Source: Escherichia coli (GTDB taxonomy: Bacteria; Pseudomonadota; Gammaproteobacteria; Enterobacterales; Enterobacteriaceae). From it: a stretch of DNA of 64,000 nucleotides. Within the stretch, counting starts at the first letter, position 1, and each line of letters starts with the position of its first letter. A model generated the notes under the pieces. The model saw nothing but the letters and a program-made list of their open reading frames with translations. It was not told where the DNA came from and made no database searches. The DNA lies in NCBI RefSeq assembly GCF_002854065.1, contig NZ_CP024147.1; one strand, written 5' to 3'. Made by a program: the position numbers and the translations under genes. Below, one piece after another: positions 8,252 through 45,181 of this stretch.

Positions 8252-9559
8252 GTGTTTATGTTCAATTTTGCAGTTAGCCGCGAAAGCCTGTTATCAGGAT
8301 TTCAGTGGTTTTTCTTTATTTTTTGCAACACGGTTGTGGTTCCTCCTACGCTACTTTCTGCTTTTCAGTTGCCGCAAAGTAGCCTGCTTACGCTCACGCA
8401 ATATGCTTTTCTTGCTACCGCACTGGCCTGCTTCGCTCAGGCGTTTTGCGGTCATCGTCGCGCTATTATGGAAGGGCCGGGGGGCCTGTGGTGGGGAACC
8501 ATCCTAACTATCACCCTTGGCGAAGCATCGCGCGGGACACCGATCAACGATATCGCCACCAGCCTGGCAGTGGGGATTGCGCTCTCCGGCGTGCTGACGA
8601 TGTTGATTGGTTTTAGCGGATTAGGCCATCGCCTGGCACGGTTATTTACGCCGTCGGTGATGGTCTTGTTTATGTTGATGCTGGGCGCGCAGCTGGCCAC
8701 TATCTTTTTCAAAGGTATGCTCGGGCTGCCGTTTGGCATAGCCGACCCAAATTTTAAAATTCAGTTACCACCGTTCGCGCTCTCGGTGGCGGTGATGTGC
8801 CTAGTACTGGCGATGATTATTTTCCTGCCGCAACGTTTTGCCCGTTATGGCCTGCTGGTCGGCACCATAACCGGCTGGTTGTTGTGGGACTTTTGCTTTC
8901 CTTCTTCGCATTCGCTCTCCGGTGAGTTGCACTGGCAGTGGTTCCCGCTCGGCAGTGGCGGTGCTTTGTCTCCGGGGATTATTCTGACGGCGGTGATTAC
9001 AGGTCTGGTGAATATCAGCAATACCTACGGTGCGATTCGGGGCACGGATGTTTTTTATCCGCAGCAGGGCGCGGGGAATACGCGTTATCGTCGTAGCTTT
9101 GTGGCGACCGGATTTATGACGCTGATAACCGTACCGCTGGCGGTAATTCCATTTTCACCGTTTGTTTCATCCATTGGTTTATTAACCCAGACTGGCGATT
9201 ACACGCGGCGTTCGTTTATTTATGGCAGCGTTATTTGCCTGCTGGTGGCGCTGGTTCCTGCACTCACGCGACTGTTTTGCAGTATCCCTTTACCCGTGAG
9301 TAGTGCGGTCATGCTGGTTTCTTATCTGCCTTTACTCTTTTCCGCGCTGGTGTTTAGCCAGCAAATAACGTTTACCGCTCGCAATATTTATCGACTCGCA
9401 TTGCCGTTATTTGTCGGCATATTTTTAATGGCATTACCGCCTGTGTATCTGCAAGACCTTCCATTAACGCTTCGTCCTCTGCTCAGTAACGGCTTATTGG
9501 TCGGGATTTTACTGGCTGTTCTTATGGATAACCTTATTCCGTGGGAACGCATCGAATAA
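8252..9559 (+). CDS. ybbY: putative purine/uracil permease family transporter
   Basis: 435-aa hydrophobic ORF recognised as YbbY; start may be 2 codons later. Confidence 0.8.
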   Translation: MFMFNFAVSRESLLSGFQWFFFIFCNTVVVPPTLLSAFQLPQSSLLTLTQYAFLATALACFAQAFCGHRRAIMEGPGGLWWGTILTITLGEASRGTPINDIATSLAVGIALSGVLTMLIGFSGLGHRLARLFTPSVMVLFMLMLGAQLATIFFKGMLGLPFGIADPNFKIQLPPFALSVAVMCLVLAMIIFLPQRFARYGLLVGTITGWLLWDFCFPSSHSLSGELHWQWFPLGSGGALSPGIILTAVITGLVNISNTYGAIRGTDVFYPQQGAGNTRYRRSFVATGFMTLITVPLAVIPFSPFVSSIGLLTQTGDYTRRSFIYGSVICLLVALVPALTRLFCSIPLPVSSAVMLVSYLPLLFSALVFSQQITFTARNIYRLALPLFVGIFLMALPPVYLQDLPLTLRPLLSNGLLVGILLAVLMDNLIPWERIE

Positions 9560-9580: not shown

Positions 9581-10726
9581 ATGAAGATTGTCATTGCGCC
9601 AGACTCTTTTAAAGAGAGCTTAAGTGCAGAAAAATGTTGTCAGGCAATTAAAGCCGGGTTTTCGACCCTCTTTCCCGATGCGAACTATATCTGTTTGCCG
9701 ATAGCGGATGGCGGCGAAGGGACGGTGGATGCGATGGTCGCCGCGACGGGCGGCAACATCGTGACGCTTGAAGTCTGCGGGCCGATGGGCGAAAAAGTGA
9801 ATGCTTTTTATGGCATTACCGGCGACGGGAAAACGGCGGTGATTGAGATGGCGGCAGCAAGTGGCCTGATGCTGGTCGCGCCTGAAAAGCGTAATCCGTT
9901 GCTGGCCTCCAGTTTTGGTACGGGGGAGTTAATTCGTCATGCGCTGGATAACGGCATTCGCCATATTATTCTCGGCATTGGCGGCAGTGCGACGGTCGAC
10001 GGCGGTATGGGCATGGCGCAGGCGCTCGGTGTGCGTTTCCTTGATGCCGACGGTCAGGTGCTGGTGGCTAACGGCGGCAATTTAGCGCGCGTGGCAAGCA
10101 TTGAGATGGAGGAATGCGATCCGCGTCTGGCGAACTGCCATATTGAAGTAGCATGTGACGTTGATAACCCGCTGGTAGGGGCACGCGGCGCGGCGGCGGT
10201 GTTTGGCCCGCAAAAAGGGGCAACGCCGGAGATGGTCGAAGAACTTGAACAGGGGCTGCAAAATTACGCCCGTGTTTTACAACAGCAAACTGAAATTAAT
10301 GTCTGCCAGATGGCGGGCGGCGGCGCTGCGGGCGGTATGGGTATTGCGGCGGCGGTATTTCTCAATGCGGATATTAAACCGGGTATTGAGATTGTACTGC
10401 GTGCGGTCAACCTGGAGCAGGCGGTGCAGGGGGCAGCACTGGTGATCACCGGGGAAGGGCGCATTGACTCGCAAACGGCAGGCGGTAAAGCGCCGCTGGG
10501 CGTTGCGTCGGTGGCGAAGCAGTTTAATGTACCGGTGATTGGGATTGCTGGCGTATTGGGTGATGGCGTGGAAGTGGTGCACCAGTACGGCATTGACGCG
10601 GTATTCAGCATTTTGCCACGTCTGGCACCTTTAGCCGAAGTGCTCGCCAGCGGTGAAACCAATCTCTTCAACAGCGCGCGAAATATTGCCTGCGCCATTA
10701 AAATAGGTCAGGGAATTAAAAACTGA
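9581..10726 (+). CDS. glxK: glycerate kinase II
   Basis: 381 aa from [14 protein letters not shown]; recognised as GlxK. Confidence 0.88.
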
Positions 10727-21577: not shown

Positions 21578-22072
21578 TTACTCGCTAACGGTCACGCTTT
21601 CAATGATAACGTCTTCTTTTGGCACGTCCTGGTGCATACCGCTACGACCGGTTGCAACACCTTTGATTTTGTCTACCACGTCCATGCCTTCAACCACTTC
21701 AGCAAACACGCAATAGCCCCAACCTTGCAGGCTTTCGCCAGAGAAGTTCAGGAAGTCGTTATCAACCACGTTGATGAAGAACTGTGCAGTTGCAGAGTGC
21801 GGAGCCTGAGTACGGGCCATTGCCAGCGTACCACGGGTATTTTTCAGACCGTTGTTGGCTTCGTTTTTGATCGGTTCTTTGGTGGCTTTTTGTTTCATGC
21901 CCGGTTCAAAACCGCCGCCCTGAATCATAAAGCCGTTGATAACACGGTGGAAAATGGTGTTGTTGTAAAAACCTTCGCGGCAGTAGTCCAGGAAGTTTTT
22001 AACTGTTTCAGGTGCTTTATCGTCAAAAGTTTTGATGACAATATCGCCGTGATTGGTGTGGAAAGTAACCAT
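21578..22072 (-). CDS. ppiB: peptidyl-prolyl cis-trans isomerase B
   Basis: 164-aa cyclophilin ORF recognised as PpiB. Confidence 0.92.
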
Positions 22073-32364: not shown

Positions 32365-32441
32365 GCGCCCTTAGCTCAGTTGGATAGAGCAACGACCTTC
32401 TAAGTCGTGGGCCGCAGGTTCGAATCCTGCAGGGCGCGCCA
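32365..32441 (+). tRNA. argU: tRNA-Arg (anticodon UCU)
   Basis: 77-nt sequence GCGCCCTTAGCTCAGTTGGATAGAGCAACGACCTTCTAAGTCGTGGGCCGCAGGTTCGAATCCTGCAGGGCGCGCCA with cloverleaf and CCA end. Confidence 0.95.
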
Positions 32442-32443
32442 TT
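32397..32443. repeat. prophage attL core (47 bp, 3' half of argU)
   Basis: Identical 47-bp copy found at 48894-48940. Confidence 0.8.
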
Positions 32444-32456
32444 ACAATTCAATCAG

Positions 32457-33620
32457 TTACGCCTTCTTTATATCCTCCATAATTCCAGAGTGGGACATAT
32501 TTGGGACATTATCACCAAAAATGTCGTCTATTTTCCTCGCATGCTCTGTCAAATGATTAGGCGCAAGGTGAGCATACCTACGAACCATTTCTATGGACTC
32601 CCATCCGCCCATTTCCTGAAGCACTGATAATGGGACGCCTGACTGAATCAGCCAGCTTGCCCAGGTGTGTCTGAGGTCATGGAAACGGAAATCTTCAATT
32701 CCTGCACGACGACAAGCTGATAGCCATGATGTCTTGCTGTCGATGCGCATCTTCCTGACCGCAGGCGTTGATGTTCCATCTGCTCGCTTAGCCGCCTTGG
32801 TATGTACAAACACCCATTTGTGATGCTTGCCTATTTGATCACGCAACACTTTACAGGCGGTATCGTTCAGCGCCACACCAATGGCGCGGTTTGATTTGCT
32901 CTCTTCTGGATTCACCCAGGCAACTCGTCGCTGCATGTCGATTTGTTGCCATTCCAGATTTATGATGTTCGACTTTCTCAGACCAGTTGCCAGCGCAAAC
33001 TTGACGACAGATTTCAGTGGTTCGGGGCACTCATCAATAAGGCGTTTTGCTTCCTCCTTTTCCAGCCATCTGACTCGCTTGTTTCTGACCGCTGGTATCT
33101 TGATGACAGGCGCTTTTTCCAGCCACTTCCAGTCGCGTTCTGCAGCACGGAGAATGGCCTTTATCATGGCAAGATGCTTTGCCTTTGTCTGAGTTGATAC
33201 TGGCTTTGGTTCATAAACAGGCAGTTCTTTACCTTTCCTGATGGCGGCCTGAACTTTCTGTTTCCATATTTCTTTCGTCTTTCTGTTATGCATTCTGCTT
33301 ACAGCAGAGTAAATCTTTGCCTCCGAGATATCTTTAAGCCTTATACCCTCAAAATGTTCAAGCCAGAACTCAATCCGGCTTTTATCTGAATCGAGAGATT
33401 TTTTATCAGCTTTTTCCTCAAGCCATCTTAGGCAGGCCTCTTCAAAAGTGACATCAGGTAAATCCCCTAGCTTTTCTACTCGCCAGAGTTCTGCTTTTCG
33501 CTTGTCGTGCAACTCCTGAGCTTGCCGCTTGTCCTTTGTGCCAAGAGATTCCTTAATTCGTTTCCCGCCCGGGAGCGAATACGAGGCATACCATATTTCA
33601 TTTCTGCGGAAGAGTGACAT
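32457..33620 (-). CDS. intD: prophage tyrosine integrase
   Basis: 387-aa ORF with C-terminal R..H..R..Y catalytic region ([10 protein letters not shown]); adjacent to tRNA. Confidence 0.9.
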
Positions 33621-33847
33621 TTTCTTTCCTCTGTTATGCCATCACCCGCGCTCACCTGGACAGTATGCAGCGGAGACTGAAGCGCCGCAATGCAGGCTTG
33701 CCGTGTTGTGAGGTAAGGAGATTTTGGCTTGGTTGGATCTTTACGTGTTGCCTGTAGGCGGCCTGTTCGTATCCAGTTGGTGGCGGTTGGTCTGGATATC
33801 TTAAGAAACTGACAGGCCTCATCGAGTGTGAGGCTGTATGATTCCAT
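33476..33847 (-). CDS. excisionase/AlpA-like wHTH protein (possibly degenerate)
   Basis: [34 protein letters not shown] motif; reading frame runs 145 nt into int, suggesting altered 3' end. Confidence 0.5.
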
Positions 33848-34097
33848 GGTTACCTCTGCTTTTTGAACGCATGTCACGTAACTTCTTAATGTGTTCTGCC
33901 GTTTCGATCTCTTCTGCTATCCGATCTGCATCAGCTTTATTCACAGGTTCAAAGTCATGATTAAAGCGGAACATGCTGGCGATACATGTTCTGCCTTTTC
34001 GGATGTAGTGAACTTTGTTGTGGGTAGAACGCAGGATTTTGCAGGGAGTGCCGTGGTGGTCGACGTACCAGGTGTTAGGAAAAATGATTCTGAACAT
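33819..34097 (-). CDS. hypothetical prophage protein
   Basis: 92-aa ORF in early-left operon orientation; no recognisable motif. Confidence 0.35.
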   Translation of the reverse strand: MFRIIFPNTWYVDHHGTPCKILRSTHNKVHYIRKGRTCIASMFRFNHDFEPVNKADADRIAEEIETAEHIKKLRDMRSKSRGNHGIIQPHTR

Positions 34098-34144
34098 TTT
34101 TACACCTCAGTTGGACGATGTTGAAATTTGCTGCTTTGAGGCCA

Positions 34145-34363
34145 TCACAGTCCCCATTGTTTGTTCTTAAGTTCGATCTCCTCCTGGCAACTCGCACAAG
34201 TCCGACAACCCTGAACAGCCAGGCGTCTTCGCTCATCTATCGGATCGCCACACTCACAACAATGAGTTGCGGATACAGTCTGGTAGTTCAGACGACGCAT
34301 TTTTATTGCTGTATTGCGCTGTAATTCTTCGATTTCTGATGCTGAATCAATGATGTCTGCCAT
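34145..34363 (-). CDS. TraR/DksA-family C4 zinc-finger protein
   Basis: 72-aa ORF with CxxC...C..C motif (CCECGDPIDERRR...CRTCASC). Confidence 0.6.
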   Translation of the reverse strand: MADIIDSASEIEELQRNTAIKMRRLNYQTVSATHCCECGDPIDERRRLAVQGCRTCASCQEEIELKNKQWGL

Positions 34364-34590
34364 CTTTCATTAATCCCTGAATTGTTGGTTAATACGCTTG
34401 AGGGTAAATGCGAATAATAAAAAAGGAGCCTGTAGCTCCCTGATGATTTTGCTTTTCATGTTCACCGTTCCTTAAAGACGCCGTTCAACATGCCGATCGC
34501 CATGCTTAAATGAGTCGGTGTGAATCCCATCAGCGTTACCGTTTCGCGGTGCTTCTTTAGTATCTGGCTGAAAGAGGGGGTTATTAAGGC

Positions 34591-34953
34591 GTGAATACCT
34601 ACAGCATCACATTACCCTGGCCTCCGAGCAATAATCGCTATTACCGCCATAATCGCGGGCGCACGCACGTCAGCGCAGAGGGGCAGGCATACCGCGATAA
34701 CGTCGCCCGAATCATTAAAAACGCAATGCTGGATATCGGCCTGGCTATGCCTGTGAAAATCCGCATTGAGTGCCACATGCCGGATCGCCGTCGCCGTGAC
34801 CTGGATAATCTGCAAAAAGCCGCTTTTGACGCACTCACTAAAGCAGGTTTCTGGCTGGATGATGCTCAGGTCGTTGATTACCGCGTTGTGAAGATGCCTG
34901 TTACCAAAGGTGGGAGGCTGGAACTGACCATCACCGAAATGGGGAATGAATGA
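34591..34953 (+). CDS. rusA: Holliday junction resolvase RusA
   Basis: 120-aa ORF recognised as RusA; GTG start with AGAGGGGG SD. Confidence 0.9.
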
Positions 34954-35090
34954 TGTTTGAGTTTTATATGGCAGAACTTCTTCGCCACCGCTGGGGGCAT
35001 CTGCGCTTATATCGTTTCCCCGGTTCTGTTTTGACCGATTACCGAATACTGAAGAGTTACGCCAAAACCCTGACAGGAGCAGGAGTATGA
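34950..35090 (+). CDS. ylcG: small prophage protein
   Basis: 46-aa [19 protein letters not shown] overlapping rusA stop; recognised as YlcG. Confidence 0.5.
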
Positions 35091-35175
35091 AGTCAGAGAT
35101 AACAATCAACTAATACTGTTTTGTTGATTTTTGCTTGTAATTGGCGTTTTGGTCTGATTTTTGTGGAGTAAGTTG

Positions 35176-35559
35176 ATGCGTGATATTCAGATGGTTCTTG
35201 AGCGTTGGGGAGCGTGGGCGGCTAATAATCATGAAGATGTGACCTGGTCGTCCATTGCCGCCGGTTTTAAGGGATTAATTCCTTCAAAAGTAAAATCTCG
35301 CCCGCAATGTTGTGACGATGACGCGATGATCATTTGCGGGTGCATGGCCCGTCTGAAAAAGAACAACAGCGATTTGCACGATTTATTAGTAGATTATTAT
35401 ATAGTCGGTATGACATTCATGTCACTGGCAGGTAAGCATTGCTGCTCTGATGGTTATATCGGGAAAAGGTTACAAAAGGCTGAGGGCATAATTGAAGGGA
35501 TGTTAATGGCATTAGATATCCGGTTAGAGATGGATATCGTTGTTAATAACTCTAATTAA
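35176..35559 (+). CDS. quuD: late gene antiterminator Q
   Basis: 127 aa from [18 protein letters not shown] with zinc-binding cysteines; phage Q family. Confidence 0.85.
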
Positions 35560-35589
35560 TACGCCAATTATTTACTAAAAGTTATTAAA

Positions 35590-35740
35590 AATGGGGCGTT
35601 GAAGCGCCCCCAAAAATAAAGGGTAATATATAACAGAAGGTTTGTATAGTTAGAAGCAAGGTTGTGCTTCTAAAGGAAGTGGCTTGAGGGAGCCACTTAT
35701 ATGTTGGGGAGGCAAAGCCTCCCACAACATATCTTTTAGT
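35590..35740. terminator. cluster of four stem-loops between convergent quuD and nmpC
   Basis: GGGGCG-ttgaa-CGCCCC; GAAGCA-aggttg-TGCTTC; AAGTGGCT-tgaggg-AGCCACTT; GTTGGGGAGGC-aaa-GCCTCCCACAAC followed by T-run. Confidence 0.4.
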
Positions 35741-35747
35741 AATCAAA

Positions 35748-36830
35748 TTAGAACTGGTAAACCATACCTACAGCAACGATATCATCGGTAGCAACGCCAG
35801 ATGCTTTCGTGAAATCGCTCTTATCAATCAGGTTGATTTTGTAGTCAACAAAAGTGGACATATTTTTGTTGAAGTAATAGGTTGCACCTACATCAACATA
35901 TTCAACCAGGTCCTGATCACCCCAAACACCCAAGTCTTTTCCTTTAGAATGCAGGTAAGCAACGGATGGACGCAGGCCGAAGTCGAACTGATATTGTGCA
36001 ACAGCTTCGAAGTTTTGTGCTTTGTTGGCAATATGGTTATTACCAAAAACAGTCATGTTCTGGGTTTCAGAATAGGTGGTGGCCAGATAGATGTTGTTCG
36101 CATCATATTTCAGACCAGCTGCCCATACTTCAGCATTTTGACCAGAAGCATTCAGACCGTTGTTACCGTAGATAACCTGATTATTAGTGCGATCAGATTT
36201 AGCATAGGTTGCACCCACGCCGAATCCTTCATACTCATAAGTAGTTGAGAAACCGAAACCATCGCCATTAGCTTCAGTTACTTCATTTCGGTCATTTTTG
36301 CCCTGATACTGAGCTGCAAAGTTCAGGCCATCAACCAGACCAAAGAAGTCGTTGTTACGATAAGTTGCAACACCTGTGGTGCGACCAGTCATGAACACAT
36401 CTGTTTGGGTCCAGGTATCGCCACCGAATTCTGGCAGAACGTCAGTCCACGCACCGATGTCGTATGCTACACCGTAGTTACGGCCGTAATCGATTGAGCC
36501 GTAGTCACCGAATTTCAGGCCAGCGAAGGCAAGACGGGTTTTATCTTTGGAGGAACCTTGAGATTCAGCGCGGTTGCCTTTGAATTCATATTCCCACTGA
36601 CCGAAACCAGTCAGTTGATCGTTGATTTGGGTTTCACCTTTGAAGCCAAGACGGGCATAAGTAGTATCACCATCATCTGCATCATTAGAGGAGAAGTAGT
36701 GCTTAGCATTAACTTTCCCGTACAGATCCAGCTTGTTACTGTCTTTATTATAAATTTCAGCTGCCTGAGCAGACATCGCCATCAGTACTGATGCAGCTAC
36801 AGCAGAAATTGCCACTGTTAATTTTTTCAT
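35748..36830 (-). CDS. nmpC: OmpC/OmpF-family outer membrane porin, intact
   Basis: 360-aa ORF with signal peptide [23 protein letters not shown] and C-terminal ...VYQF; recognised as NmpC. Confidence 0.9.
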
Positions 36831-37258
36831 CGTGAGCCCTTTTTTTTGAACTATTATTAAAAAATGATGTCACTGCGCGATAAATATTCATCTAATCAAT
36901 GTGATTATTTCAAGATGTAAGTTTTGGTTTCTCGTTTAATTTGTGAAGTAGATCTCTATTTTTATCTGAACTTTTTTCTATCGAATCCTATTCATGGCTC
37001 TTGGCTGAATAAAAATAAATCTATTAGCCAATTTATATTAATGGCTGTTATTTATAAGTGCTCTATAATTTGAAGGTTCAATTTAAATTGGCTAAAAATA
37101 ACGCTGGAAATTATTTGTTGGTTATTTGTTGAGATTTTCTTATGTATTTGTAGTGGTGTTTTCAATACTCGGTAGCATTCTCGCAAATATCATTTAGTGG
37201 TTTACGTACGTAAAAAATTGGTTATGCTGTTAAGAGTGGTTACTTCGTTACACAGCTT

Positions 37259-37290
37259 AAACCCGCCGTCGAGCGGGTTTTTCCATTTTT
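37259..37290 (+). terminator. tR'-like rho-independent terminator upstream of lysis genes
   Basis: ACCCGC-cgtcga-GCGGGT followed by TTTTT; about 115 nt upstream of holin start. Confidence 0.55.
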
Positions 37291-37403
37291 TGAGTCTCGA
37301 TATTAGCTGATAACCCAATACCTGAGTTATTCACTGACTCCGAGTCTGTTACGTTTCGTAGTATTCCCTCAATTTACACCCGCTTTGTCTGCGAGGTGGG
37401 GTT

Positions 37404-37619
37404 ATGAAATCCATGGATAAGTTAACAACGGGTGTCGCCTATGGCACCTCAGCAGGTAGTGCCGGGTACTGGTTTTTACAGCTGCTCGATAAAGTCACGC
37501 CCTCACAGTGGGCAGCAATAGGTGTGCTGGGTAGCCTGGTATTTGGCCTGCTGACGTACCTGACAAACCTTTATTTCAAGATTAAAGAAGATAAGCGCAA
37601 GGCTGCGAGAGGTGAATAA
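37404..37619 (+). CDS. essD: class II holin (phage 21 S-like)
   Basis: 71-aa ORF with two TM segments and charged C-terminus. Confidence 0.85.
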
Positions 37620-38116
37620 TGCCTCCATCATTACGAAAAGCTGTTGCTGCTGCTATTGGTGGCGGGGCTATTGCTATAGCATCTGTGTTAATCACTGGCC
37701 CAAGTGGTAACGATGGTCTGGAAGGTGTGAGACATAATCCTTACAAAGACATAGTTGGTGTATGGACTGTATGTTACGGGCATACAGGAAAAGACATCAT
37801 TCCCGGTAAAACGTATACCGAAGCAGAGTGCAAAGCCCTCCTGAATAAAGACCTTGCCACTGTCGCCAGACAAATTAACCGGTACATCAAAGTCGATATA
37901 CCGGAAACAACGCGCGGCGCTCTTTACTCGTTCGTCTACAACGTGGGTGCTGGCAATTTCAGAACATCGACGCTTCTTCGCAAAATAAACCAGGGTGATA
38001 TTAAAGGCGCATGTGATCAGCTACGGCGCTGGACATACGCTGGCGGTAATCAATGGAAAGGACTGATGACTCGCCGTGAGATTGAGCGTGAAGTCTGTTT
38101 GTGGGGGAAACAATGA
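37619..38116 (+). CDS. rrrD: phage lysozyme (endolysin)
   Basis: 165-aa ORF with T4-lysozyme-like motifs; ATG overlaps holin stop. Confidence 0.9.
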
Positions 38117-38571
38117 GCAGAGTAACCGCGATTATCTCCGCTCTGGTTATCTGCATCATCGTCTGCCTGTCATTGGCTGTTAATCATTACCGTGATAACG
38201 CAATCGCCTACAAAGAGCAGCGCGATAACAAGGCCAGTGAACTGGAGAAGGCGAACGCCACCATCGCTGACATGCGGAAGCGTCAACGTGATGTAGCAGA
38301 ACTCGACGCAAGATACACAAAGGAGCTTGCTGATGCTAACGCGACTATCGAAAGTCTCCGTGCTGATGTTTCTGCTGGGCGTAAGCGCCTGCAAGTCGCC
38401 GCCACCTGTGCAAAGTCAACGACCGGAGCCAGCGGCATGGGCGATGGAGAAAGCCCAGGACTTACAGCAGATGCTGAACTCAATTATTACCGTCTCCGAA
38501 GTGGAATCGACAAGATAACCGCGCAGGTTAACTACCTGCAGGAATACATCAGGACGCAATGCCTGAAATAA
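38113..38571 (+). CDS. rzpD: i-spanin Rz
   Basis: 153 aa from [17 protein letters not shown]; N-terminal TM then coiled coil; lambda Rz-like. Confidence 0.85.
38327..38518 (+). CDS. rzoD: o-spanin Rz1 lipoprotein embedded in +1 frame of Rz
   Basis: 63-aa ORF with lipobox LLGVSAC and proline-rich region, nested in Rz. Confidence 0.6.
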
Positions 38572-38603
38572 TTTTTTTGCAAATCACAAAGTCCATTTAA
38601 TGA

Positions 38604-38627
38604 GCCTCGCGATGCGGGGCTTTTTTT
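38604..38627 (+). terminator. rho-independent terminator after lysis cassette
   Basis: GCCTCGC-gat-GCGGGGC hairpin followed by TTTTTTT. Confidence 0.55.
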
Positions 38628-38866
38628 ACATCTGAATTTCACAGCGCATCTCACGCGCATATTACATCACCCGAGCCTTTCAGAAAGTTGAGCCTGAGAA
38701 CTGCCGTATATGGTGGCGACCATCTCGGGGCGGCTTTTCTGTGAGACAGGCTCACTTTCTAAAAGGTAAAGACGCTATGAACCAATTAGAAGAAAAGCTT
38801 CAAAGAATGATTTCCTTATACAAGGAAGATAACTGCCAAAAAGTTCCTTAAAACATCGCAGAGTTA

Positions 38867-39265
38867 ATGGAATTGGCAAGTGAATTTTCTGGCATGCTTA
38901 AGTCGTCAGGTGTTCGGTCAGCGTTCTTTGTTGAAATGCTGATGCACGGCGGACTTATGGCAACAATGAGACGTGTAATGGAAGACCAGAGAAAAGAACC
39001 TCCTCAGGTATACGTTTTGTCATCGAAGAAAACTGGGCTAACCAAAATTGGGTATTCATCCAACATTCCACAACGCATCAAATCGCTTGGCAACTCTGGA
39101 CCAGACTGCTTGAAGCTTGAGTGCCTGATCCCTGGTGGAAGAGAAACTGAAAACATGCTTCATCGCAAATTTGCCGCAAAGAGAAAGCACGGTGAATGGT
39201 TCGCCCTGTCCAAGGATGACATTGAGGGATTGAAATCTGTAGCGATTACTTCTGATGGCTATTAA
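38867..39265 (+). CDS. T5orf172/GIY-YIG-like domain protein
   Basis: 132-aa ORF; motif VYVL..TGLTKIGYS..RIKSL...HRKF...HGEWFAL; in frame with a 24-codon upstream ORF separated by one TAA. Confidence 0.45.
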   Translation: MELASEFSGMLKSSGVRSAFFVEMLMHGGLMATMRRVMEDQRKEPPQVYVLSSKKTGLTKIGYSSNIPQRIKSLGNSGPDCLKLECLIPGGRETENMLHRKFAAKRKHGEWFALSKDDIEGLKSVAITSDGY

Positions 39266-39943
39266 TGCTTGTTTAGAGCAATTTTCATAACAACTCTTCA
39301 TTACAAAGCCCATCTACTGGTGGGCTTGATAATGAAACCGTGATTTACATCCCCACAATCCGGGTATGTAAAAGATAGTTCAGGCGAGAACGGATTTAAC
39401 TAAATCTGTGCGCCACCAGTTAACGGCAGTACCACGAAACAACCCAAGCCAGTAAGTGGGGAAATAACACCGGCAGCCACTGAAAGATGAACCTCCTGCC
39501 TTATGGCAAAAAAGATTCTTTGTGGTGGCGGACTGATGGAAAGACATCCTAATTTCAGCCAAACATTGAAGGAGTTGTTATGTCAGCAGAAGGTTTCAAT
39601 AACCCATCAAAATTCCGGGATGAGTGGGATAGCAGCGTAAAGAGTAAGTGATGCCATCACAAAAGCCATTCCCTACAGAGTGGCTTTGATAATGGCTTAT
39701 ACCCTACACGGGATAACTTAACTGATATCCTTTTTAAAGGATAAAGGTATTCAAGCCTGACACATCATGCGCTGTATCGTCGCCGTATTCCCGTATTAAC
39801 AGAGACCGTAGCCCGACGGGGAACTCCTTCTGCGCGAGTGTGCGGGAATAATCAAAAACGATGCACACCGGGGTTACCGGGTACACATATTTCATCATGC
39901 CAGCGAGTCCGGTTCTGGCACGGAAGAAACCGGACGTTATGAT

Positions 39944-40354
39944 TTAGTGCGGAAATATTTGTGTAGTGTTCTGAATGTTCTCAGTAAAGAGTAATGAATT
40001 ATCAAAGGTATAGTAATACCTTTTGTTTTCGTGGATATTTGTAATCCATCTGAAAACCCCTGCTGTAGCAAGATTTTTCCTGTATTCGTAAAATGATAAC
40101 TCTCCTGATTTGAATCCTTTTAATGTGGTTTCTATAAGGCATTTATTTTTTGAAAATCTTACATTTACAACCTTACCCTGTCCTTTTATTAAAACCGTAT
40201 TATCGTTTTCAAGAACAAGATGAATATTCTCTGTGGCTAAATAGTAAATGTAATGTGAGACATTGTGACGTTTTAGTTCAGAATAAAACCAGTGATAGTT
40301 TAAATTATTTCGCACTTTATCGAATATTTGTTTAAAAATGGCAACCTGAGCCAT
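39944..40354 (-). CDS. ybcV: prophage protein YbcV-like
   Basis: 136 aa from [14 protein letters not shown]; recognised tentatively. Confidence 0.55.
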
Positions 40355-40411
40355 TGTAGTACCTTCCATGTGATATGAAGGTACCTAGTCTGCACGATTA
40401 TCTAAATTGCT

Positions 40412-40645
40412 TCAATCTGGTCTGACCTGCTTTCTGAGCAATTCAGTAATGTCACTCTTTTCTTTGTTTGCTTCAGGCGAAACTCTTTTTTCTGAGCACA
40501 GTCTTCGGCGGCAGGCTTCAATGACCCAGGCTGAGAAATTCCCGGACCCTTTTTGATCAAGAGCGATGTTAATTTGTTCAATCATTTGGTTAGGAAAGCG
40601 GATGTTGCGGGTTGTTGTTCTGCGGGTTCTGTTCTTCGTTGACAT
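40412..40645 (-). CDS. ribbon-helix-helix-like small prophage protein
   Basis: 77-aa basic ORF; RNIRFPNQMIEQINIALDQKGSGNFSAWVIEACRRRL resembles RHH DNA-binding fold. Confidence 0.45.
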   Translation of the reverse strand: MSTKNRTRRTTTRNIRFPNQMIEQINIALDQKGSGNFSAWVIEACRRRLCSEKRVSPEANKEKSDITELLRKQVRPD

Positions 40646-40819
40646 GAGGTTGTCCCGTATTCAGTGTCGCTGATTTGTATTGTCTGAAGTTGTTTTTACG
40701 TTAAGTTGATGCAGATCAATTAATATGATACCTGCGTCATAATTGATTATTTGACGTGGTTTGATGGCGTAGATGCACGTTGTGACATGCAGATGATAAT
40801 TATTATCATTTTGCGGGTC

Positions 40820-41030
40820 CTTTCCGGCGATCCGACAGGTTACGGGGCGGCGACCTCGCGGGTTTTCGCTATTTATGAAAATTTTCCGGTTTAAGGCGTT
40901 TCCGTTCTTCTTCGTCGTAACTTAATGTTTTTATTTAAAATACCCCCTGAAAAGAAAGGAAACGACAGGTGCTGAAAACGAACTTTTGGGCCTTTGTCGT
41001 TTCCTTTCTCTGTTTTTGGCCGTGGAATGA
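40820..41030 (+). other. lambda-type cos site (cosQ/cosN/cosB)
   Basis: GGGCGGCGACCT cohesive-end sequence at 40845-40856 followed by Nu1-binding R-site repeats CGTTTCC and IHF-like AT tract; matches lambda left end. Confidence 0.75.
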
Positions 41031-41033
41031 ACA

Positions 41034-41858
41034 ATGGAAGTCAACAAAAAGCAGCTGGCTGACATTTTCGGTGCGAGTATCCGTACCATTCAGAACTGGC
41101 AGGAACAGGGAATGCCCGTTCTGCGAGGCGGTGGCAAGGGTAATGAGGTGCTTTATGACTCTGCCGCCGTTATAAGATGGTATGCCGAAAGGGATGCTGA
41201 AATTGAGAACGAAAAGCTGCGCCGGGAAGTTGAAGAACTGCGGCAGGCCAGCGAGACAGATCTCCAGCCAGGGACTATTGAGTACGAACGCCATCGACTT
41301 ACGCGTGCGCAGGCCGACGCACAGGAGCTGAAAAATGCCAGAGACTCCGCTGAAGTGGTGGAAACCGCATTCTGTACTTTCGTGCTGTCGCGGATCGCAG
41401 GTGAAATTGCCAGTATTCTCGACGGGATCCCCCTGTCGGTGCAGCGGCGTTTCCCGAACGGCACGGTCGATGTGTTCCGCGGCTGGGTCAGCAGTATCGG
41501 TAAGGCGGTGACGGCGAAGGAAGTGATTACCCGCACGGTGAAAGTCACCAACGTAGGACGTCCGTCGATGGCAGAAGATCGCAGCACGGTAACAGCGGCA
41601 ACCGGCATGACCGTGACGCCTGCCAGCACCTCGGTGGTGAAAGGGCAGAGCACGACGCTGACCGTGGCATTCCAGCCGGAAGGCGCAACCGACAAGAGCT
41701 TCCGTGCGGTGTCTGCGGATAAAACAAAAGCCACCGTGTCGGTCAGTGGTATGACCATCACCGTGAAAGGTGTTGCTGCAGGCAAGGTCAACATTCCGGT
41801 CGTATCCGGTAATGGTGAGTTTGCTGCGGTTGCAGAAATCAACGTCACCGCCAGTTAA
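41034..41858 (+). CDS. nohD: terminase small subunit Nu1 N-terminal 141 aa fused to tail tube V-like Ig (Big_2) C-terminal domain
   Basis: First 141 aa match lambda Nu1 ([30 protein letters not shown]...); remainder matches C-terminus of lambda gpV ending VTAS. Confidence 0.85.
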
Positions 41859-41873
41859 TCCGGAGAGTCAGCG

Positions 41874-42224
41874 ATGTTCCTGAAAACCGAATCATTTGAA
41901 CATAACGGTGTGACCGTCACGCTTTCTGAACTGTCAGCCCTGCAGCGTATTGAGCATCTCGCCCTGATGAAACGACAGGCAGAACAGGCGGAGTCAGACA
42001 GCAACCGGAAGTTTACTGTGGAAGACGCCATCAGAACCGGCGCTTTTGTGGTGGCGATGTCCCTGTGGCATAACCATCCGCAGAAGACAAAGCTGCCTTC
42101 TATGAATGAATTGGTGCTCATACGCACTCCGTTGCGATTGGTTCACATGGACACACCATCACCGTTAACGCTGCTGGTAACGCGGAAAACACCGTCAAAA
42201 ACATCGCATTTAACTATATTGTGA
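41874..42224 (+). pseudogene. tail assembly chaperone G-like fragment
   Basis: First ~80 aa match lambda gpG (MFLKTESFEHNGVTVTLSEL...), then diverge. Confidence 0.6.
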
Positions 42225-42234
42225 GGCTTGCATA

Positions 42235-42819
42235 ATGGCATTCAGAATGAGTGAACAACCACGGACCATAAAAATTTATAATCTGCTGGCCGGAACTAAT
42301 GAATTTATTGGTGAAGGTGATGCATATATTCCGCCTCATACAGGTCTGCCAGCAAACAGTACCGATATTGCACCGCCAGATATTCCTGCTGGCTTTGTGG
42401 CTGTTTTCAACAGTGATGAGGCATCGTGGCATCTCGTTGAAGACCATCGGGGTAAAACGGTTTATGACGTAGCGTCAGGGGACGCGTTATTTATTTCTGA
42501 ACTCGGTCCGTTACCGGAAAATGTTACCTGGTTATCGCCGGAAGGGGAGTTTCAGAAGTGGAACGGCACAGCCTGGGTGAAAGATGCAGAAGCAGAAAAA
42601 CTGTTCCGGATCCGGGAGGCGGAAGAAACAAAAAACAGCCTGATGCAGGTAGCCAGTGAGCATATTGCGCCACTTCAGGATGCTGTAGATCTGGAAATCG
42701 CAACGGAGGAAGAAACCTCATTGCTGGAAGCCTGGAAAAAGTATCGGGTGTTGCTGAACCGTGTTGATACATCAACTGCACCTGATATTGAGTGGCCTAC
42801 GAACCCTGTCAGGGAGTAA
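42235..42819 (+). CDS. tfaD: tail fiber assembly protein
   Basis: 194-aa Tfa-family ORF. Confidence 0.8.
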
Positions 42820-42873
42820 TCATTGGGATTATGCCGCAGCACGTCTTAAGCAAGAACGTGCTGCGGTTGGATG

Positions 42874-43542
42874 CTATTTTTTCCCTGAAGCGGAAAACAT
42901 TACTACAGTACCTTGAACCTTGGTTTTAACATTCTCGAAATGCTCTGAGAGTATATGTGTTAAGCCTTCTTCAGAATCTTTTGTGTTTGAAAAGATGCCT
43001 TTCTGATTGTAAATGCGCATCAGTTTTTGACCGAAGCTATTGTGCACAACTCCATCGCCAAGAATTGTGGCTCCGTATAGAGTTCCATCGTCAGTTAAGG
43101 CCTGCGCCGCATTGCGTATTACACAGCTTTTTGTAGATATATTTCCAGGCAGGCAGTGAAGAAGGTAAAACATGGAAATGGAATCAAATTGACCATGTAA
43201 CGCCGCGGGATAAGGTTCAAAAACATCATGGCTAATTTTATGTTTAATTTTTGATTCCCCAGCCCTTGTAGATGCCGCGTTCAGGCTAGCTTCGTTCAAA
43301 TCCATTAAAGATATCAGACTACTCTCAGGTACGTGAGTAAGGTAAAACCCAGTTCCAACACCAATATCCAGATGGTTGTTACCTAAATGTTCCAGAAAGT
43401 GTGGAAGAAGGTGTTCCTTTGTAGGACATCCCCATGCAAGCCGATTTGATACTCCCAAAACCCACCAGTCATAAAGCTTTAGGGTAAGTGGTGTGTAAAT
43501 TTTAGCCCCATCATCTGTGTTTTTTTTCATTAATTTCACCAT
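42874..43542 (-). CDS. ybcY: class I SAM-dependent methyltransferase
   Basis: 222-aa ORF with motif I DIGVGTGF. Confidence 0.7.
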   Translation of the reverse strand: MVKLMKKNTDDGAKIYTPLTLKLYDWWVLGVSNRLAWGCPTKEHLLPHFLEHLGNNHLDIGVGTGFYLTHVPESSLISLMDLNEASLNAASTRAGESKIKHKISHDVFEPYPAALHGQFDSISMFYLLHCLPGNISTKSCVIRNAAQALTDDGTLYGATILGDGVVHNSFGQKLMRIYNQKGIFSNTKDSEEGLTHILSEHFENVKTKVQGTVVMFSASGKK

Positions 43543-43598
43543 GTTATAGTTTTATTTGTGAGTTAAATCAATTATGGCAATGAATTACAAGGGGTTAA

Positions 43599-43852
43599 AT
43601 GCTGCCGCAGCATAGCGATATTGAAATAGCCTGGTATGCTTCAATACAGCAGGAGCCGAATGGCTGGAAGACCGTCACCACACAGTTCTACATCCAAGAA
43701 TTCAGTGAGTATATTGCGCCACTGCAGGATGCTGTAGATCTGGAAATCGCAACGGAGGAAGAAAGATCGTTGCTGGAAGCCTGAAAAAAGTATCGGGTGC
43801 TGCTAAACCGTGTGGACACTTCCGTAGCACCAGATATCGAGTGGCTTATTCA
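43599..43852 (+). pseudogene. tfaX: tail fiber assembly gene remnant truncated by IS1
   Basis: C-terminal Tfa-like segment with internal TGA, duplicate of tfaD 3' end, interrupted by IS1. Confidence 0.6.
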
Positions 43853-43907
43853 GGTGATGCTGCCAACTTACTGATTTAGTGTATGATGGTGTTTTTGAGG
43901 TGCTCCA

Positions 43908-44183
43908 GTGGCTTCTGTTTCTATCAGCTGTCCCTCCTGTTCAGCTACTGACGGGGTGGTGCGTAACGGCAAAAGCACTGCCGGACATCAGCGCTATCTC
44001 TGCTCTCACTGCCGTAAAACATGGCAACTGCAGTTCACTTACACCGCTTCTCAACCCGGTACGCACCAGAAAATCATTGATATGGCCATGAATGGCGTTG
44101 GATGCCGGGCAACCGCCCGCATTATGGGCGTTGGCCTCAACACGATTTTCCGCCATTTAAAAAACTCAGGCCGCAGTCGGTAA
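43908..44183 (+). CDS. insA: IS1 InsA
   Basis: 91-aa [33 protein letters not shown]. Confidence 0.9.
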
Positions 44184-44605
44184 CCTCGCGCATACAGCCG
44201 GGCAGTGACGTCATCGTCTGCGCGGAAATGGACGAACAGTGGGGATACGTCGGGGCTAAATCGCGCCAGCGCTGGCTGTTTTACGCGTATGACAGTCTCC
44301 GGAAGACGGTTGTTGCGCACGTATTCGGTGAACGCACTATGGCGACGCTGGGGCGTCTTATGAGCCTGCTGTCACCCTTTGACGTGGTGATATGGATGAC
44401 GGATGGCTGGCCGCTGTATGAATCCCGCCTGAAGGGAAAGCTGCACGTAATCAGCAAGCGATATACGCAGCGAATTGAGCGGCATAACCTGAATCTGAGG
44501 CAGCACCTGGCACGGCTGGGACGGAAGTCGCTGTCGTTCTCAAAATCGGTGGAGCTGCATGACAAAGTCATCGGGCATTATCTGAACATAAAACACTATC
44601 AATAA
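44102..44605 (+). CDS. insB: IS1 InsB (expressed as InsAB' by -1 frameshift)
   Basis: 167-aa ORF in -1 frame relative to insA; A6C slippery motif at 44159-44165. Confidence 0.85.
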
Positions 44606-45181
44606 GTTGGAGTCATTACCGCTTATTCAACCATAATAAACAGTATGTATATCATAGGTTATTAATTGTGAGTTTTTTCGGTGTGTTATTTGTTTGTTTG
44701 ATGTTATGCTTTTGCGCCCCAAAAGGTTGTTTAGATGTATTTTATCAATTGATTTTCAATATCGTTTAATAAAGAAAAATTAAGCAAGCTGGATGTTGGT
44801 TTTTTGTTAATTGAATGGTTCTAATAATGTTTTTTTACTGTTGTTGAATGTGACTTGATAAGAAATGCAAGTAAAAATGATACTCTTTTTATTTTAAATT
44901 CAAACGGTTGACATATATATAGCAAGAGGTTTCAGGTGCGTTGTAGTGAGTTTATGTTAATAAAAAGTATAGTAAGCGTTGAAAAATGTAACTTTGAAAT
45001 ACGTTAGAATAAAAAACAATATACATATAATAATTTAATCTTAAATGAAATTTATTAAAATTTGCAAACTATAATTTTGTGTATAAAAATATAAATGCAC
45101 ATCATCCTGATTATGATTGTGTATTTAATTGGTTGTTATTTGACTGCTATCAACTTGTTTTAATTTTATGATAGGTGCAAG

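Follow-up and report, generated by a model that had tools for sequence, protein, structure and literature searches.

The closest described counterpart of the site reported here is the cos of the K-12 cryptic prophage DLP12 (qsr'), which likewise lies upstream of nohD in a prophage at argU with a 45-bp att repeat. De Paepe and colleagues (2014; PMC3945230) grew lambda on MG1655 carrying a marker in DLP12 and found lambda x DLP12 recombinants to be about 100-fold commoner than those with Rac or Qin. Ten of the 19 lambda x DLP12 junctions lay directly beside cos, a clustering that the authors explained by double-strand breaks at the cos sites of lambda and DLP12 alike, and recombinants with DLP12 R/Rz or nu1 in place of lambda's were active and viable (PMC3945230). 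In the Feiss laboratory, E. coli C serves as the indicator because the defective prophages of K-12 carry cosN. Taken together, this choice of indicator and the DLP12 recombination data indicate that the field already treats the DLP12 cos as live.

In lambda, the initiation of packaging requires cosN and cosB, and its termination requires a downstream cosQ and cosN (PMC4669245, PMC4856287, PMC9026076). After nicking cosN, terminase stays with the end that bears cosB; this end docks on the portal and is then translocated (PMC4669245, PMC4856287). The end that bears cosQ is open to attack by nucleases (PMC4669245, PMC4856287, PMC9026076). Without termination, packaging continues and the particle is lost (PMC4856287), and uncut DNA sticking out of the head prevents the joining of a tail. 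A helper terminase acts in trans on repressed chromosomal prophages, and a segment between two chromosomal cos sites is packaged at 1-4 virions per cell (PMC4669245). Reviews and recent primary papers hold that a cos terminase cannot do without a second cos and that lambda-like cos phages perform neither generalised nor lateral transduction.

Here we describe a cos in a 64,000-nucleotide stretch of DNA (hereafter the window) from a non-K-12 E. coli; outside IS1 and IS2, the window shares 99.93-99.96% identity with E. coli strain 100416 (NZ_CM128593.1). A preliminary description had noted an intact cos matching the left end of lambda, with the terminase large subunit gene gone, and had suggested that a superinfecting lambdoid phage with a compatible terminase could package the prophage DNA in trans and thereby mobilise nmpC, appY and ompT. 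As far as its sequence can tell, the site is with high probability a competent cohesive-end relic, left by a lambdoid prophage of DLP12 (qsr') type that has decayed at argU, which would act by the steps proposed in the Discussion.

Results

A complete lambda-type cos

The 12-mer GGGCGGCGACCT occurs only once in the 64-kb window, at 40845-40856 (+), even when 1 mismatch is allowed. By itself this 12-mer is not significant, since 26% of shuffled sequences give a match within 1 mismatch; we identify the site as cos because the alignment surrounding GGGCGGCGACCT settles its identity. Homology to lambda is contiguous across the cohesive-end junction (40483-41456, +): by blastn and alignment, 40483-40844 is 94.5% identical to lambda 48141-48502, and 40845-41456 is 97.2% identical to lambda 1-613. 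Lambda 48487-72, which holds cosN, I2 and R3, is matched base for base. On the cos maps of Feiss et al. 2015 (PMC4669245), Sippy et al. 2016 (PMC4856287) and Murialdo & Feiss 2022 (PMC9026076), with the 16-bp definition of cosN taken from the last (PMC9026076), a complete lambda-type cos comprising cosQ, cosN, I2, R3, I1, R2 and R1 spans 40815-41009 (Table 1). The range first given for it, 40820-41030, misses five bases of cosQ and otherwise covers cosN to R1.

Table 1. The cryptic prophage, the subsites of its cos and the adjoining fusion ORF
Feature	Position	Strand	Basis or comparison
DLP12-like cryptic prophage, 16.5 kb, contains cos	32397-48939	.	bounded by 45-bp att repeats
cosQ, termination subsite (GGGTCCT)	40815-40821	+	identical to lambda 48473-48479, which we take to be the position of cosQ on lambda
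cosN, 16 bp: the 12-nt GGGCGGCGACCT and 2 bp per side	40843-40858	+	16/16 vs lambda
I2, bent cosN-cosB spacer (lambda bp 18-50)	40862-40894	+	33/33 vs lambda, spacing kept
R3, critical TerS (Nu1) binding site (lambda bp 50-65)	40894-40909	+	16/16 vs lambda
I1 region, R3-R2 (IHF site, intrinsic bend)	40910-40952	+	two differences vs lambda, no indel
R2, TerS binding site, inverted vs R3 and R1	40953-40968	-	16/16 vs lambda R2 16-mer
R1, accessory TerS binding site	40994-41009	+	15/16 vs lambda
nohD'::V' fusion, Nu1 1-141 in frame with V 114-246, 274 aa	41034-41858	+	Pfam, residue mapping

The termination subsite sits within the block CGGGTCCTTTCCGG, which is conserved at the right ends of lambda, N15 and phi80; in the phi80 record cosQ is annotated in the region equivalent to this block. 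The right end of HK97 is unrelated and uninformative for the conservation of cosQ. The cosQ-cosN spacing is that of lambda, as are the cosN-R3 and R3-R2 spacings, and R2-R1 is 1 bp shorter. The heptamer CGTTTCC, of which there are 12 copies per 64 kb on both strands, occurs three times within 108 bp, at 40897-40903 (+, R3), 40958-40964 (-, R2) and 40998-41004 (+, R1), that is, in the lambda order R3>, <R2, R1>; the Nu1-binding repeats claimed downstream of cosN are thereby confirmed.

The bases on which function is known to depend are conserved. An early packaging step requires I2 (PMC4856287), and mutation of R3 bp 56, 58 and 59 impairs packaging (PMC4669245, PMC9026076); these three genetically defined positions and the whole of the R3 contact bp 55-63 are as in lambda. 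The two differences in I1 are A73G (40917) and T102C (40946). In R1, which is non-essential (PMC4669245), the sole change is at the outermost base, lambda C151T. Substitutions in cosN or the R sites that abolish packaging, named in advance as what would overturn the claim of an intact cos, were looked for by alignment and none was found: cosN, I2, R3 and R2 carry no substitution at all, so that the claim appears sound at the level of sequence. The Nu1 start codon (41034) is 25 bp past R1, placing cos directly upstream of Nu1. A scan for promoters and terminators around cos gave matches at chance level only.

The prophage and its neighbourhood

The perfect 45-bp att repeats are the 3' end of argU (32397-32441) and a copy at 48895-48939; argU itself occupies 32365-32441 and is adjoined by intD. 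From the annotation of strain 100416 and K-12 and the ORFs of the window, the genes run in the order intD, a few small early remnants, rusA, ylcG, quuD, nmpC, essD, rrrD, Rz, an ORF with a T5orf172 domain, ybcV, ylcI, cos, nohD', V', G', a tail-fibre fragment, tfa, ybcY, tfaX', appY and ompT. Integration at argU with duplication of the tRNA 3' end and the order of the late-region and moron genes are both those of DLP12. The early region is nearly all deleted and intD is intact (387 aa); no replication genes are annotated from int to rusA, and blastn gave no lambda O/P homology. The 16.5-kb remnant may have kept the ability to excise.

The nmpC porin gene at 35748-36830 (-), interrupted by IS5 in K-12, is intact (360 aa). 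An IS2 at 47112-48440, missing in strain 100416, breaks ompT after codon 8, in the signal peptide, with the remainder of the gene at 46181-47111 beside it; ompT is probably inactive in the source strain. An IS1 with a 9-bp target duplication, also missing in strain 100416, lies at 43853-44620 in the interval between the tfaX remnant and appY. In place of bor, which is absent, there is a 132-aa ORF at 38867-39265 (+) with T5orf172/MUG113 (GIY-YIG-like) domains; it matches phrog_4284 (unknown function) and, weakly, the PADLOC candidate PDC-S57, and may be a moron or a homing-type nuclease. The only Rfam match is to IS009 (229 bits, full length), inside tfa at 42578-42776 (+).

Loss of the packaging and structural genes

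When the window was searched by tblastn, lambda A, W, B, C, D, E, FI, FII, Z, U, H and J gave no match; only the N-terminal part of Nu1, the C-terminal part of V, G (1-81), the tail of stf, and tfa were matched. The terminase large subunit gene is thus gone, as had been noted, and gpA and the portal and capsid genes are all absent from the window; Nu1 is truncated too. By blastn, lambda homology stops at 613, restarts at 9285, stops at 9947 and restarts at 21848. The junction 613->9285, at a TTCC microhomology, is that of the fusion ORF, whose V portion is tail protein V (major tail protein) and in which Pfam recognises Phage_Nu1 (residues 1-145) and Big_2 (residues 189-267; Ig-like). This ORF is without the C-terminal 40 residues of TerS, which are assigned to TerL binding (PMC9026076), and keeps the DNA-binding and oligomerisation parts; the recognition helix (residues 17-24) and wing (residues 31-39) of its Nu1 fragment are identical to lambda's. 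RefSeq labels its pieces as pseudogenes. A PADLOC match (mad1) of the Nu1 HTH as a defence system was rejected as generic HTH similarity. At 42110, a second deletion junction (lambda 9947->21848) links residues 1-81 of the tail chaperone G with the final ~40 codons of the side tail fibre gene; tfa comes next and is intact.

The differences from lambda recur in isolated phages

Within the minimal functional cos, taken as lambda 48442-178, the insert of a working cosmid (PMC4856287), the window and lambda show 14 differences. Our alignment of this region took in PhiR26_1, PhiR42_1, PhiR34_1, PhiR49_1, Kati, 2H10 and K-12 DLP12. All 14, the 1-bp deletion included, are found in one or more of the isolated phages, and at most of the differing positions it is lambda that stands apart. 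A73G and T102C are also present in PhiR26_1, PhiR42_1, PhiR34_1, PhiR49_1 and 2H10, the R1 change C151T is common to PhiR26_1 and 2H10, and the shortening between R2 and R1 is common to all other natural phages compared. PhiR26_1 is 100% identical to the window over 40791-41104 and matches 238 of the 239 positions of the minimal cos, the remaining base (40790) being that of PhiR42_1; its Nu1 differs from that of lambda by L132I only and has the same recognition helix and wing. We infer the viability of the PhiR phages from their database records (complete genomes with the propagation host stated); a literature search found no paper describing them. The allele used in the K-12 DLP12 experiments differs from that of the window at 9 of 239 positions. 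Since the window and K-12 DLP12 carry different alleles, PhiR26_1 did not simply copy its cos from its MG1655 host.

By every criterion that can be read from the DNA, the cos is intact; it would be a competent relic, and a terminase of lambda specificity would be expected to recognise and cut it. Support for cleavage and packaging at this cos is indirect, coming by analogy from its identity with isolated phages and from the experiments on K-12 DLP12. The identity of the cos core to lambda (94%) is no higher than that of the flanks (94.5% and 97.2%); as the core is conserved no better than its surroundings, nothing indicates selection on cos in situ.

Direction and termination of packaging

The direction of packaging at this cos, from cosN toward cosB, is that of the + strand. 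The gene nmpC, upstream of cosQ, is therefore on the unpackaged side, where DNA is degraded or recombines, contrary to the suggestion that packaging could mobilise it. For termination, a second cosQ-cosN is needed about 38-51 kb downstream. No second cosN is present in the window, which extends 23 kb beyond cos, and no cosQ-cosN composite was found 20-60 kb downstream of cos in the near-identical strain 100416. Over the same 20-60 kb of strain 100416, cosN-like 12-mers with 2 mismatches number 4 against 4.3 expected. One such 12-mer, GGGCAGCGACCA, lies ~41 kb downstream in the right orientation; it was rejected for its chance-level frequency, its flanks without cosQ and its absence from the composite search. 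A second lambda-type cos is reported for strain 100416 in the search of the genome collection. With no second cosQ-cosN in range, completion of packaging is not expected.

Having no O/P module, the 16.5-kb element cannot supply packageable concatemers. The lower packaging limit of lambda is about three-quarters of its genome length, and an excised 16.5-kb circle would fall far under it. The site is of the cos type and not a headful (pac) site, so that it does not qualify as a platform for lateral transduction. The idea of packaging in trans by a superinfecting phage therefore holds in part: a helper terminase can act in trans, but a second cosQ-cosN is missing. For the genes named with it, appY is on the packaged side, but a particle carrying it could not be finished, and ompT, for which there is no terminating cos either, is split after its codon 8 by IS2 in the source strain.

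Discussion

Based on these findings, we propose how the cos of the decayed prophage would behave in a cell in which a phage of lambda specificity is growing. The TerS (Nu1) of that phage would bind R3 and R2 over the IHF bend, and the bound TerS would position TerL so that cosN is nicked at 40845/40856; the terminase complex would presumably remain on the right-hand, cosB-bearing end. As one outcome, the exposed left end could stimulate homologous recombination with the phage, which would pick up cos-adjacent prophage DNA, as experiments on K-12 DLP12 have demonstrated for that prophage. As the other, rightward packaging could start into nohD'-tfa-appY-ompT::IS2-envY-nfrAB-cus and then the ent/fep cluster (as arranged in strain 100416); it would stall with no second cosQ-cosN within one head-length, and no normal transducing particle would arise. 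The cos itself would have persisted as a site that chance deletions spared and that gathered no substitutions of its own. It has no demonstrated host function. For the genes to the left of cos, the realistic route of mobilisation is homologous recombination into a viable lambdoid phage.

Two other readings bear on whether the site could work and what it could move. It is unlikely that a superinfecting lambdoid phage packages the prophage and its flanks directly from cos and so transduces nmpC, appY and ompT, even though the cos is intact in sequence and trans-packaging from chromosomal cos sites is real (PMC4669245). Unidirectional packaging toward cosB excludes nmpC; no terminating cos is in range and failure to terminate is lethal for the particle; ompT is disrupted by IS2; the element, at 16.5 kb, cannot replicate; and, per current literature, cos phages do no generalised or lateral transduction. 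In its favour, non-excising lambda prophages give 'docL' heads, in which packaging has run from cos into the bacterial DNA; after nuclease trimming such heads can transduce, at low frequency. A literature search on lambda 'doc' particles brought up nothing relevant. That the cos only looks intact, with function abolished by the R2-R1 spacing, A73G/T102C or C151T, for example, is very unlikely. Its 14 differences from lambda in the minimal cos and the known importance of the cosN-cosB spacing (PMC9026076) would fit such a reading, but every one of these differences, the 1-bp deletion included, is also carried by isolated phages, with lambda mostly the outlier. Moreover, the cosN-R3 and R3-R2 spacings are intact, R1 is merely accessory, and the more divergent cos region of K-12 DLP12 works in lambda recombinants (PMC3945230).

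A further reading gives the locus a role of its own: selection would maintain cos and the truncated TerS as a device against phages or for hijacking them, in which Nu1(1-141)::V' forms mixed complexes with phage TerS and/or occupies cosB, like the Rpp of the PICIs. What the truncation takes away is precisely the 40-residue C-terminal stretch to which TerL binding is assigned, and Rpp proteins, too, are without a TerL-binding tail and heterodimerise with the DNA-binding domain of TerS. The ORF is open over 274 codons and lies downstream of a Q-dependent late operon, from which a superinfecting phage could conceivably activate it. We nevertheless regard this reading as extremely improbable. The junction is an ordinary microhomology deletion, K-12 and further strains have other deletions, including ones with full-length nohD, and RefSeq treats the pieces as pseudogenes; the cosB is of phage type, with no private specificity as in PICIs, there is no excision-replication module, and expression of the fusion ORF is only hypothetical. 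More broadly, it is quite unlikely either that terminase-less cos relics, which most E. coli genomes contain, serve as start points of low-level, one-directional chromosomal packaging or that Nu1(1-141)::V' is an Rpp-like interfering TerS. If the former were true, chromosomal packaging from this cos during growth of a phage of lambda specificity would carry appY-envY-nfr-cus-ent, and cos phages would have their own equivalent of lateral transduction, something whose existence the current literature denies.

In the preferred reading, the site is a sequence-competent relic that would act mainly through recombination. Of 5,426 complete E. coli genomes, 4,590 (85%) contain a match to the 255-bp cos core, 3,968 of them with at least 80% coverage; the median number of lambda-type cos places per complete genome is 2 and the maximum 8. 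A core of 100% identity is present in at least 21 genomes, mostly annotated beside nohD or nohA. A cos in a DLP12 remnant is an ordinary, already known feature, and beyond correct annotation its importance is small. Cryptic-prophage cos sites are a known nuisance for packaging genetics, and they are recombination hotspots at which infecting lambdoid phages exchange late-region DNA. Genes are mobilised from them through recombination into a viable phage rather than through direct packaging; which flank could be carried depends on the packaging direction, and at this cos nmpC is left out.

Among known systems, the cos-type PICIs (EcCICFT073, its relatives and the Rpp system) share with the locus a lambda-like cosQ and cosN, the lack of an own terminase and helper dependence. 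They have a private cosB, an rpp gene, an excision-replication programme and concatemer packaging, whereas the window has a phage-type cosB with lambda R sites, no rpp and no replication module; its gene after cos is a Nu1 fragment and its intD comes without replication genes, so that it does not belong with them. The cos of lambda has the same subsites in the same order and orientation and with the same critical spacings, and its cosQ, cosN, I2, R3 and R2 are identical; the window differs from it by 14 substitutions or indels at non-contact positions and by having no cognate terminase adjacent. PhiR26_1 and PhiR42_1 (PV340555, PV340562) carry the full Nu1, A and head genes that the window is without.

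K-12 DLP12 shares with the window the neighbourhood quuD-nmpC-essD-rrrD-rzpD...ylcI-cos-nohD-tfa-ybcY-tfaX-appY-ompT. In comparison with it, the window has a far more reduced early region, an intact nmpC, a replacement for bor, and the additional IS1 and IS2. K-12 DLP12 keeps a full nohD and an A' fragment without V' or G', whereas in the window Nu1 is cut at 141 and V' and G' are kept; from these differing remains it follows that the K-12 and window lineages lost their structural genes by independent deletions from a fuller argU prophage. What both have retained is the same lambda-type complex cos, of which the K-12 copy is functional in lambda recombinants and a recombination hotspot (PMC3945230).
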